Of a stretch of 64,000 nt of DNA, positions 32,566-34,239 are shown piece by piece. The notes under the pieces are model-generated. The model ran no database searches and was not told where the DNA came from. It saw nothing but the letters and a program-made list of their open reading frames with translations. A program made the position numbers and the translations under genes. The stretch's first letter is position 1. Each line of letters opens with the position of its first letter. The stretch comes from an uncultured Anaerolineales bacterium (lineage in GTDB: Bacteria > Chloroflexota > Anaerolineae > Anaerolineales > UBA11858). The DNA lies in the NCBI GenBank assembly GCA_964613985.1, contig CAZTJD010000009.1, forward strand, positions 859 through 64,858, given 5' to 3'.

Positions 32566-34239
32566 TTATTTCTTCTGTGACAGCGTGTATAAATTTCCCC
32601 CTGTTGGTAATAGGCGGAAATGATCTTCCAGGTCCGGATATTTTTTCTCAACAAATACCGGGCGACCTTCCTCAAGACAATCTTCCAAAACAGTTATCAA
32701 GGTAGGTGCGACCTTGCCGTTATTCCCATAAGGCATGGCCTCAAAGAATAAAGTGTTCGTCATTCCGTTTTCAACATGAGCCAGGTAAGCAGTGGTATAC
32801 AAAGCCCGCCAATCCATAACGAACACGGCGTTATGCGCGGCTCCTGCCAGGGTTATCTGAGCAACGAGGCGAGGTTCTGAGAGATTATAAGCCGGGAAGA
32901 CGTAGTCTTCTATGACAAAATTTGCCACACCGGAGCGAAGTGCATCCCAACGTGTCGACGCAAACGGTTGAATCACCATAGTGACGAAGAACAGCACTGG
33001 GAGCAGGAATACCAGTTGTTTCCCGCGACCTTGCCTGGACTCGGACTGCCGATCAACCCACGCCAGTGCTGACCCCATCCCGGTTGCGACAGCGATTACC
33101 AAGGGGATATACAGCGAAAGGTAAAAAACATACTTATCACCAACCCGATAATTGATGATGAAGAACAGCGAAAACAAAAACCACAGCAGGATAAAAACGC
33201 CGTTTACAGGTCGGTTAAGCAGCATGAACACCAACCCGATCAGTCCCATAATGAGTACCGGCGTCGTAAACTCAAGCCCCTTAAAACGATTGAAGAATAT
33301 TCCTAACTCCCTTGTGAAAGAAAATTCACCACCGGGAAACAAGGCGTTGCCCCACTGCTCGCTGATCACAATCATCTTTAGCCGGTTTAGGGGGGAATTA
33401 AAGTCCTCGGGTTTTAAATTCCAAAAAACTCGAGAGGGTTCGAGAGTGGTGCGGATAAAACTAGTGGGAGAGTTTAGCTGGTCTGAAATAAGAAATGCTG
33501 ATATGAAAATCAGCAAGCCCACAACAGCCCCGGTGAAACCGGCTGTGATCGATCGAAACCATGTGGTACGTGAGGTGTGCTGACTCCGTAGGACCCAGAC
33601 AACAAACACAACTGCAGGAGGGCCAATAAGCCAGACTGAGGCATGCACCCCAAACCCAATCCCTGCCAGCAAGGCGGCTGCCATGAGAGAGCAAGTTCTT
33701 TTTTTGGGGTCCACTTCCCAGCGGAACAACAGGATCACGATCATCACCAGGAATGCCATCCCGGGCGTGTACACTTCTGCGATCACGGCTTGAGACCAGA
33801 AGGTGTAAGAGACTCCCAATGCCAGACTGCCTAAAGATGCGCCTATCTTGCTACTGGTGAAATACCTTCCAACAAGGTATACGCCTCCGACGGTAATTGC
33901 GGCGCTGATCGCTGAAAATAAGCTGATGCGCCAGGCAGGGTTACTAATAGGAAGGTAGCCAACCAACCGGCTCAGTAAAAGATAGATAGGGTAGCCAGTG
34001 GAGTGCGTGATCCCAAAGGTATATGCAAGACATTGGAATTCGGCACTATCACCGTATAAGACATCCGGGGCGAGGGTGCGCACATAAGCAGTCAGGGCCA
34101 AAATACTAATGACCAGGGCAAGTAAAGCATCGCGCTTACTTAGTTCATTTGTTGACTTGCGAAATCCCATGATCATTTCCTGGATATTTTCGGAGAGGGG
34201 ACGACGTACCTGGGTCGTGGTAAGTTTCTCAGCTTCCAT
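32566..34239 (-). CDS. DUF2723-type GT-C-fold membrane glycosyltransferase (TMEM260/PMT-like)
   Basis: 557 aa, about 11+ TM. First-loop motif [16 protein letters not shown]...[11 protein letters not shown], characteristic of DUF2723. C-terminal soluble domain. Confidence 0.65.

Follow-up and report, generated by a model that had tools for sequence, protein, structure and literature searches.

The stretch of DNA analysed in this work, hereafter the window, comprises 64,000 nucleotides of a contig from an uncultured Anaerolineales bacterium (CAZTJD010000009.1, positions 859 to 64,858; assembly GCA_964613985.1), and carries on its minus strand a gene of the DUF2723 family, whose product belongs to Pfam family PF11028 and to the GT-C superfamily of membrane glycosyltransferases. 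We found that this protein represents a narrow bacterial subfamily, which has kept the donor-binding module of human TMEM260 and has an acceptor-side domain of its own, and that its gene stands in a conserved operon-like array with genes for an Opp-type ABC importer and beta-galactosidases. The donor module and the annotated family were already known; what is new is the acceptor-side domain and the conserved setting in a catabolic operon. We favour the reading, with a probability of roughly 0.4, that the protein is an active GT-C enzyme using a lipid-linked sugar, which would be co-expressed with galactoside uptake and would have the exported protein or proteins of the operon as acceptor. The searchable literature yielded no report on GT-C enzymes in sugar operons of Chloroflexota, and on DUF2723 only the statement that TMEM260 has distant bacterial homologs (PMC10214176), consistent with the view of the first-pass annotation that the bacterial family members are uncharacterised.

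The first-pass annotation, made from the sequence of the window, had described a 557-codon open reading frame (ORF; 32566..34239, minus strand) as a DUF2723-type GT-C glycosyltransferase carrying the first-loop signature YGDSAEFQ...THSTGYP. The ORF could be read directly from the sequence, where the features described go well beyond chance, and its product (residues are numbered here as in the 557-aa translation) matches PF11028, named 'Protein O-mannosyl-transferase TMEM260-like' and formerly DUF2723, with E=5.1e-26 and a score of 92 bits (gathering cutoff 24.2); the match spans residues 64-221 and profile positions 1-177 of 179. The signature is present as well, and it is invariant in an alignment of the window protein with 32 homologs of 46-71% identity (33 sequences in all). 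When the profile of these 33 sequences was compared with all PDB chains, there was one meaningful relative, human TMEM260 (9rql, 9rqm, 9rqn; E=1.1e-17). Both in hmmsearch and in hhalign the alignment with TMEM260 was limited to the N-terminal GT-C module, residues 46-219, and it was again only these residues that aligned when hhalign was run with the ortholog profile against TMEM260 fragments of up to 314 aa. The hmmsearch alignment with 9rql pairs GDSAEF with GDSGEL and THSTGYP with AHPPGYP of TMEM260, thus D64 and H79, both invariant across the 33-sequence ortholog set, correspond to TMEM260 D52 and H67, two essential residues which bind the mannose of dolichyl-phosphate mannose (PMC10214176; bioRxiv 10.64898/2026.03.17.711096).

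The kinship with TMEM260 that had been suggested for this protein therefore holds for the N-terminal donor module, but it does not extend to the enzyme name. Because the recognisable sequence homology to TMEM260 covers only the donor-binding module, the designation 'protein O-mannosyltransferase' should not be transferred. There was no match to the PMT, PMT_2 or MIR domains in the protein at E<0.01; many of its orthologs carry a precomputed PF13231 match. The tetratricopeptide repeat (TPR) domain of TMEM260 is absent, with no Pfam match and no helical repeat in the structural model, thus the protein is not an enzyme of the full TMEM260 type.

An AlphaFold2 model built on the ortholog alignment (pLDDT 81.7, pTM 0.84) has 11 transmembrane (TM) helices and a C-terminal five-stranded alpha/beta domain. 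Searched with Foldseek against the PDB, the model returned GT-C proteins as all of its 32 best matches (probability 0.98-1.0; 1.00 for the top 31), which bears out the GT-C fold proposed earlier. The best matches were STT3, ArnT, PglB, ALG12 and DPY19 (E=5e-8 to 2e-5, TM-score ~0.5). These proteins share with ours the GT-C membrane architecture with an outer-leaflet catalytic site, but identity is only 10-13% and their periplasmic or lumenal domains differ; the acceptors of ArnT, PglB/STT3, ALG and DPY19 are lipid A, an Asn sequon, lipid-linked oligosaccharide and Trp, respectively. The overlap with Pmt1, Pmt2 and Pmt4 was partial (~270 columns, TM-score ~0.31), and 9rql (TMEM260) was not among the Foldseek matches. 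Proteins of the Pmt and PMT/POMT type (GT39) have in common with the DUF2723 protein the GT-C fold and an Asp-containing first outward loop. They differ from it in having PMT or MIR domains, and Pmt is encoded by a housekeeping gene outside catabolic operons; their donor is polyprenyl-phosphate mannose, whereas for our protein a polyprenyl-phosphate sugar is only proposed.

An arrangement of 11 TM segments, N-terminus inside and C-terminus outside, agrees with the helices and with the short K/R-rich loops. This topology predicts an outward position for loop 1 (D64, H79), for the long loop that follows TM7 and for the C-terminal domain, in line with the orientation given in the first-pass annotation; a multi-pass fold with an acidic residue, D64, in the first (predicted) outward loop is the arrangement that defines GT-C enzymes. 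The predicted layout also resembles that of TMEM260, in which 11 TM helices are followed by an alpha/beta (Rossmann-like 'palm') domain on the non-cytoplasmic side. The C-terminal domain (residues ~437-557, ~120 residues after TM11) gave a five-stranded alpha/beta fold also when modelled alone (pLDDT 84.9), and it has no detectable sequence similarity to TMEM260. Compared with PDB sequences it yielded nothing significant, the best hit being a 27-residue match to a SIR2-like deacetylase (E=0.05), and Foldseek found no match below E=0.05, returning generic Rossmann-like folds only. When 1.84 billion representative proteins were searched exhaustively with a profile of this domain, it turned up in only 198 clusters. 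It was C-terminal in every full-length match, and the proteins were 490-780 aa long, most of them 514-581 aa.

A C-terminal domain without detectable relative among solved structures would also suit a non-catalytic protein, i.e. a GT-C-fold accessory subunit of the importer such as a membrane scaffold or a glycan-binding receptor, and so would the tight adjacency of the gene to transporter genes and the lack of a donor-synthesis gene in the operon. However, D64, H79 and the motif around them are invariant in the 33 orthologs, which would not be expected of a degenerate enzyme, and we know of no precedent for such a role of a GT-C-fold protein in an importer. We consider this explanation very unlikely, and think that the DUF2723 protein is probably an active GT-C glycosyltransferase.

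The first-pass annotation had also proposed an 11-nt coding overlap between the DUF2723 gene and the preceding beta-galactosidase gene (lacZ-1). The ATG at 34239 does lie within lacZ-1 and overlaps the lacZ-1 stop codon (TGA, 34231-34229) by 11 nt, but it is doubtful as a start codon. The first 23 codons of the 557-codon ORF are without counterpart in all 32 homologs; 26 of these homologs begin at the column of M24, the remaining six having short unrelated extensions, and the modal homolog length is 534 aa, i.e. 557 minus 23. M24 is encoded by the ATG at 34170, which is preceded, with a 6-nt spacer, by AGGAA (34181-34177), whereas the sequence upstream of the ATG at 34239 (...GTTTTCAACTC) lacks a purine-rich element. 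Based on the homolog starts, the modal length and the spacing of the AGGAA element, the gene most likely begins at ATG 34170 and extends over 32566..34170 (534 aa), which corrects the start codon in the annotation. The in-frame 23-codon extension of the mechanical ORF (34171..34239), which contains the Shine-Dalgarno-like AGGAA, is probably untranslated, and the apparent overlap to which it gives rise is probably an artefact, a by-product of the in-frame upstream ATG.

With the start at 34170 the gene is separated by 58 nt from lacZ-1 and by 58 nt from the second beta-galactosidase gene (lacZ-2). By a consensus scan neither 58-nt gap contains a terminator-like site, and promoter-like sites were not enriched and did not occur in either gap; the counts of both scans were at or below shuffled expectation, which shows no more than the absence of an obvious terminator. 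The gene thus most likely does have a downstream start, but there is no conspicuous signal for a promoter or terminator of its own, and co-transcription with the neighbouring genes is plausible judging from their arrangement. Alignment to the orthologs over the full length of the protein, at 46-71% identity, shows that the gene is intact and under purifying selection.

The DUF2723 gene is the eighth in a row of twelve co-oriented minus-strand genes, which runs from 47236 down to 23486 (~24 kb). In the order of transcription these code for an 862-aa protein, a solute-binding protein (SBP), OppB, OppC, two Opp-type ATPases (OppD- and OppF-like), LacZ-1, the DUF2723 protein, LacZ-2, an FtsX-like permease, a GH42 enzyme and an ABC ATPase. 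The first gene (44648..47236) encodes a cytoplasmic protein without Pfam, NCBIfam or PDB match, whose orthologs (45-62% identity) are found upstream of the SBP gene in three related loci (L080, L091, L092; loci of the surveys described below are given L numbers) and near the ATPase genes in L009; it may represent an undescribed glycoside hydrolase or lyase family. The SBP (42389..44503, 704 aa) is a family-5 lipoprotein (SBP_bac_5, E=7e-49) with a twin-arginine-like signal and the lipobox LATAC, followed by a linker rich in Thr, Glu, Val and Lys, and it is the sole exported soluble product of the operon. The linker (residues 30-75), which follows the lipobox Cys, contains repeats of the type (V/I)-x-K-E-T-Q-(V/I)-V, as do the orthologs in L041, L045 and L005. 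The permease genes are oppB-like (41034..42044; BPD_transp_1 and BPD_transp_1_N in Pfam) and oppC-like (39874..41184; BPD_transp_1 and OppC_N, start uncertain), and the two Opp/Dpp-type ATPases are encoded at 37710..39899 (ABC_tran and oligo_HPY).

The position of the DUF2723 gene between two GH2 paralogs could be verified: both flanking LacZ-type genes are complete, with GH2 domains matching at E=1e-11 to 1e-108. LacZ-1 (34229..37609, 1126 aa; Glyco_hydro_2_C E=2e-108, Bgal_small_N, LacZ_4) has no signal peptide, and its orthologs (55-69% identity) are encoded directly upstream of DUF2723 in many loci. It is ~80 aa longer than LacZ-2, its Bgal_small_N match is split in two, and residues 857-907 give a weak, sub-threshold EAD7 match; the sequence suggests an insertion in the C-terminal domain (residues ~850-940). 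LacZ-2 (29370..32507, also a GH2 beta-galactosidase by Pfam) is ~45% identical to LacZ-1. Its gene starts at ATG 32507, which has GGAG 7 nt upstream, and not at TTG 32675 as in the ORF list (29370..32675); its orthologs, at 63-72% identity, are in L001-L003, L085 and L091. The next gene codes for a 954-aa permease with duplicated FtsX domains of the MacB type (26362..29226; FtsX E=1e-11, weak ADOP match), which has orthologs in L002, L003 and L091. Its stop codon overlaps by 1 nt the start of the gene for a GH42 beta-galactosidase (24353..26362; Glyco_hydro_42 E=8e-124). The last gene of the row encodes a MacB/LolD-type ABC ATPase (23486..24220; ABC_tran, best NCBIfam matches LolD, DevA, MacB and FtsE), the likely partner of the FtsX-like permease; genes for relatives of this ATPase adjoin DUF2723 in L026, L028 and L049. 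A MacB-type module is thus interleaved with GH42 inside a catabolic operon. Opp/Dpp-type ABC importers are known to take up oligosaccharides in Thermotoga, where they work together with cytoplasmic glycosidases, and the array in the window, with its family-5 SBP, its pairs of permeases and ATPases and its GH2 and GH42 enzymes of the cytoplasm, has the same components. To our knowledge, neither a GT-C glycosyltransferase nor a MacB-type module has been described in such operons.

Conservation of this arrangement was assessed in two ways. The scan anchored on DUF2723 used one genome per species and gave 79 loci, which were scored by tblastn and ORF clustering; the closer relatives were almost all from metagenome-assembled genomes of Anaerolineae or other Chloroflexota. 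Loci with at least 35% identity and at least 60% coverage were regarded as orthologous, and the 26 of these that had at least 4.5 kb of upstream flank were compared with 26 loci of distant DUF2723 proteins (below 35% identity, mostly from Acidobacteriota). A lacZ-type GH2 gene within 2.5 kb was found in 16 ortholog loci, an orthologous Opp ATPase gene (at least 60% identity) upstream in 17, and either of the two in 20; for the distant loci all three numbers were 0. The neighbours of the distant acidobacterial genes appeared by eye to be housekeeping-like (secretin-, LolA-, MurA- and MurB-like) and were uninformative. The commonest order, SBP-OppB-OppC-ATPase-ATPase-lacZ1-DUF2723, is kept down to ~41% protein identity. 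Deviations from it include six loci in which the ABC genes are followed by DUF2723 without an intervening lacZ (L023, L025, L038, L041, L045 and L081), in the first five of which lacZ is absent and the GT-C gene abuts the ATPase genes; four loci where lacZ-1 and the GT-C gene are separated by GH42 or by some other gene (L031, L044, L006, L007); and L027, which has lacZ downstream of the GT-C gene.

The second test, a metagenome scan, was anchored on the transporter and had the second ATPase as query. Opp ATPase orthologs of 74-82% identity mark the orthologous operon: operons with at least 74% identity in the ATPase and at least 56% in the SBP were taken as orthologous, those with 60-67% in the ATPase and ~30% in the SBP as paralogous. 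Among the orthologous operons with enough downstream DNA five of seven carry the GT-C gene (L081, L085, L089, L092, L152), whereas none of the paralogous Opp systems does. The linkage is thus conserved in both directions, and the pairing with beta-galactosidases on which the first-pass annotation had laid emphasis turns out to be one part of it: GH2 neighbours do recur, but the closer conserved partner of DUF2723 is the Opp-type importer.

Some other neighbours recur in these loci. A protein of ~368 aa (cluster c9) without Pfam match is encoded beside DUF2723 or between two lacZ genes in L001 (11616..12722), L003, L004, L005, L010, L014, L025, L027, L046, L047 and L091 (14677..15777); in L091 it fills the slot between the lacZ genes without DUF2723, and the window has no homolog of it. 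A 111-120-aa neighbour (c31) was considered as GtrA but turned out to be a CopG-like soluble protein, and a neighbour of ~350 aa (c18), considered as a GtrA/GtrB-type partner, was rejected as being at best weakly GT8-like.

Synteny of this kind can also arise without any direct functional tie, if one GT-C paralog was inserted once in an ancestral operon and was inherited vertically from there. Chloroflexota carry many GT-C paralogs, the syntenic loci all come from one class, the Anaerolineae, two orthologous operons (L091 and L093) are without the gene, and 6 of the 26 orthologs are in other contexts, all of which would be expected if the gene were a mere passenger. We nevertheless regard this as unlikely. 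The linkage is still present at ~40% protein identity and has outlasted several rearrangements of the neighbours, the gene stays by the ABC ATPase genes after loss of lacZ in the six loci listed above, and the clade-specific C-terminal domain is highly conserved. Even orthologs outside Opp operons are found beside genes for LacI regulators, GH29 fucosidases, secreted GH2 enzymes or other sugar ABC proteins.

Our preferred reading, that of an enzyme acting on exported proteins of the operon, can be put in mechanistic terms as follows. A polyprenyl-phosphate-sugar donor would be bound by the eleven TM helices, its sugar would be held by the first extracytoplasmic loop with D64 and H79, and on the outer face the acceptor would be presented by the small alpha/beta domain that is specific to this clade. 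Because the gene is in a co-oriented operon, the enzyme would be made during growth on a beta-galactoside oligosaccharide, and its acceptor would be an extracytoplasmic molecule that is needed while the uptake system is on. The foremost candidate would be the lipid-anchored SBP, whose linker is rich in Thr; secreted GH2 enzymes that have Pro/Thr linkers may serve as well in other genomes. Related loci do encode secreted GH2 lipoproteins with such linkers, one GH2 having the sequence PTPIPTPTTT. Actinobacterial Pmt O-mannosylates Thr/Pro-rich regions of lipoproteins and of solute-binding proteins. TMEM260 acts on extended peptides (bioRxiv 10.64898/2026.03.17.711096). It is these two precedents that make exported proteins the favoured acceptors. 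We looked by eye for the acceptor sequon of TMEM260 in the SBP, and rejected the one candidate, a P-x5-P...G-G-x-x segment, which ends in Ala instead of Ser/Thr and varies in the orthologs; there was no by-eye match to an IPT-type sequon in the SBP of the operon, where no search for IPT domains was made.

Several points weigh against this reading. Homology to TMEM260 covers residues 46-219 only, and the counterparts of R264/Y267 in the donor-loading loop of TMEM260, of R355 at the start of its TM10 and of the catalytic base D441 in its lumenal Rossmann-like domain could not be aligned; the conserved residues R270-x-x-W273, K369 and E444/D445 were picked by eye as candidates for these positions, E444/D445, in a conserved E-D-Y-x-[FY]-P loop, being only a by-eye candidate for the counterpart of D441. 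The TPR 'finger' domain, by which TMEM260 recruits the acceptor peptide, is lacking in our protein, which also differs from TMEM260 in being bacterial and encoded within an operon. Thr/Pro-rich linkers are general in the SBPs of this organism. The window contains a second Opp-type importer operon for sugars or peptides (10914..18041, plus strand), which encodes permeases and ATPases (two of each), a LacI regulator and a family-5 SBP (16248..18041) with a PTEAP-repeat linker, and since it has neither a GT-C gene nor a glycosidase gene, it serves as an internal contrast. There is no polyprenyl-phosphate-sugar synthase gene inside the operon. The orthologous operons L091 (in the order lacZ1, a 366-aa gene, lacZ2 and the FtsX-like gene) and L093 do not have the GT-C gene at that position, thus it cannot be obligatory for transport. 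It must also be noted that co-transcription was inferred from gene spacing alone, and that the activity, the donor and the acceptor are likewise inferred.

Outside the operon the window contains genes that bear on the donor and on the kind of acceptor. The first is a second GT-C glycosyltransferase gene, of PMT_2 type (51792..53678, plus strand, 628 aa; PMT_2 E=2e-13), divergent from the gene of a hybrid sensor. A PMT_2-type GT-C of ~595 aa is encoded downstream of DUF2723 in other loci: directly adjacent in L017, L021, L030 and L041, with a small ORF between them in L018 and L019, at a slightly greater distance in L042 and, in L045, on the opposite strand. As the window gene falls in the same blast cluster (c10) as these neighbours, the two GT-Cs appear to travel together with such loci. 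The second is a GT2 gene (62428..63660, plus strand; Glycos_transf_2 E=2e-32) whose product has TM helices at its hydrophobic C-terminus, and whose best NCBIfam matches are dolichyl-phosphate hexose transferase, AglJ and ArnC, none of them reaching the equivalog cutoff. By its likeness to polyprenyl/dolichyl-phosphate hexose transferases the window holds a plausible donor-making enzyme, which we tentatively propose might make the donor for the DUF2723 protein, from whose gene it is located 28 kb away. It lies in a group of genes (60641..63660, plus strand) for an NDP-sugar epimerase/dehydratase, a hexapeptide acetyltransferase and the GT2 protein, which could be a donor-synthesis module for GT-C enzymes; the group is preceded by a gene (57954..60626) for an 890-aa protein without clear family, which has TM segments near its N- as well as its C-terminus.

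These genes would also fit an active GT-C whose acceptor is an envelope glycan or glycolipid, so that galactoside import and hydrolysis would be coupled to envelope glycosylation. It is possible that a galactose-derived nucleotide sugar is channelled through a polyprenyl-phosphate sugar onto a surface polymer, and it is also conceivable that the importer and the galactosidases recycle fragments of a polymer built by the GT-Cs, much as trehalose is recycled by LpqY-SugABC in mycobacteria. Of the bacterial GT-Cs that have been characterised, most have lipids or glycans as acceptors (ArnT, Emb/Aft, PimE), and the second GT-C recurring beside DUF2723 suggests stepwise assembly. The epimerase/dehydratase, the acetyltransferase and the GT2 resembling polyprenyl-phosphate-hexose synthases are present in the window, a MacB-type exporter is encoded in the operon itself, and some related loci have cytidylyltransferase- and epimerase-like genes (recognised by eye) and a weakly GT8-like gene. 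However, the operon has no genes for polymer synthesis (Wzx/Wzy, initiating transferase), the genes for sugar modification lie on the other strand at a distance of 26-30 kb, and the nearest homolog of known function is a protein O-glycosyltransferase. We hold an envelope acceptor to be possible but rather doubtful. A more far-reaching proposal, which we put forward as a long shot, is that the DUF2723 enzyme and the recurrent PMT_2-type GT-C would form a substrate-induced surface-glycosylation module, integral to the glycan-utilisation locus, in which catabolism and envelope glycosylation would be mechanistically coupled. Imported galactose might then be routed via a polyprenyl-phosphate sugar onto the binding lipoprotein or a wall polymer, or the importer and the galactosidases might salvage the products of the GT-Cs, or the MacB-type module could be part of the same extracytoplasmic machinery.

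The remaining features of the window concern the surroundings of the locus. The hybrid sensor-regulator (48252..51914, minus strand) is a single polypeptide of 1220 aa, in which Pfam recognises a LacI-type periplasmic-binding-protein domain, HisKA/HATPase, a receiver and an AraC helix-turn-helix domain, and it is a likely candidate for the regulator of the galactoside locus. It resembles the hybrid two-component systems of Bacteroides, yet it is found in an Anaerolineae genome. A GH31 enzyme of the alpha-xylosidase/alpha-glucosidase type is encoded at 53789..56110 (minus strand), and GH29 alpha-L-fucosidases occur in related DUF2723 loci (L011, L027 and L030); a set of GH31, GH29, GH2 and GH42 enzymes would fit fucosylated or galactosylated oligosaccharides of the xyloglucan type. 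At the left edge of the window there is a gene for an IS21-family IstB ATPase (99..842, plus strand; E=2e-68), thus a mobile element borders the region.

TMEM260 is a human disease gene, and the recurrent operon context described here is a first genomic clue to the role of the bacterial members of its family. The association is real and conserved, and makes the function of the bacterial TMEM260 homologs testable, since the candidate acceptors are narrowed to a few co-encoded exported proteins or to a galactose-containing envelope component. If the proposal of a surface-glycosylation module were true, bacterial GT-Cs would include a functional class that has not been described before, and bacterial TMEM260 homologs would have their first assigned role. 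If our preferred reading is confirmed, it would mean that in some monoderm bacteria one nutrient-uptake system has a glycosyltransferase of its own.

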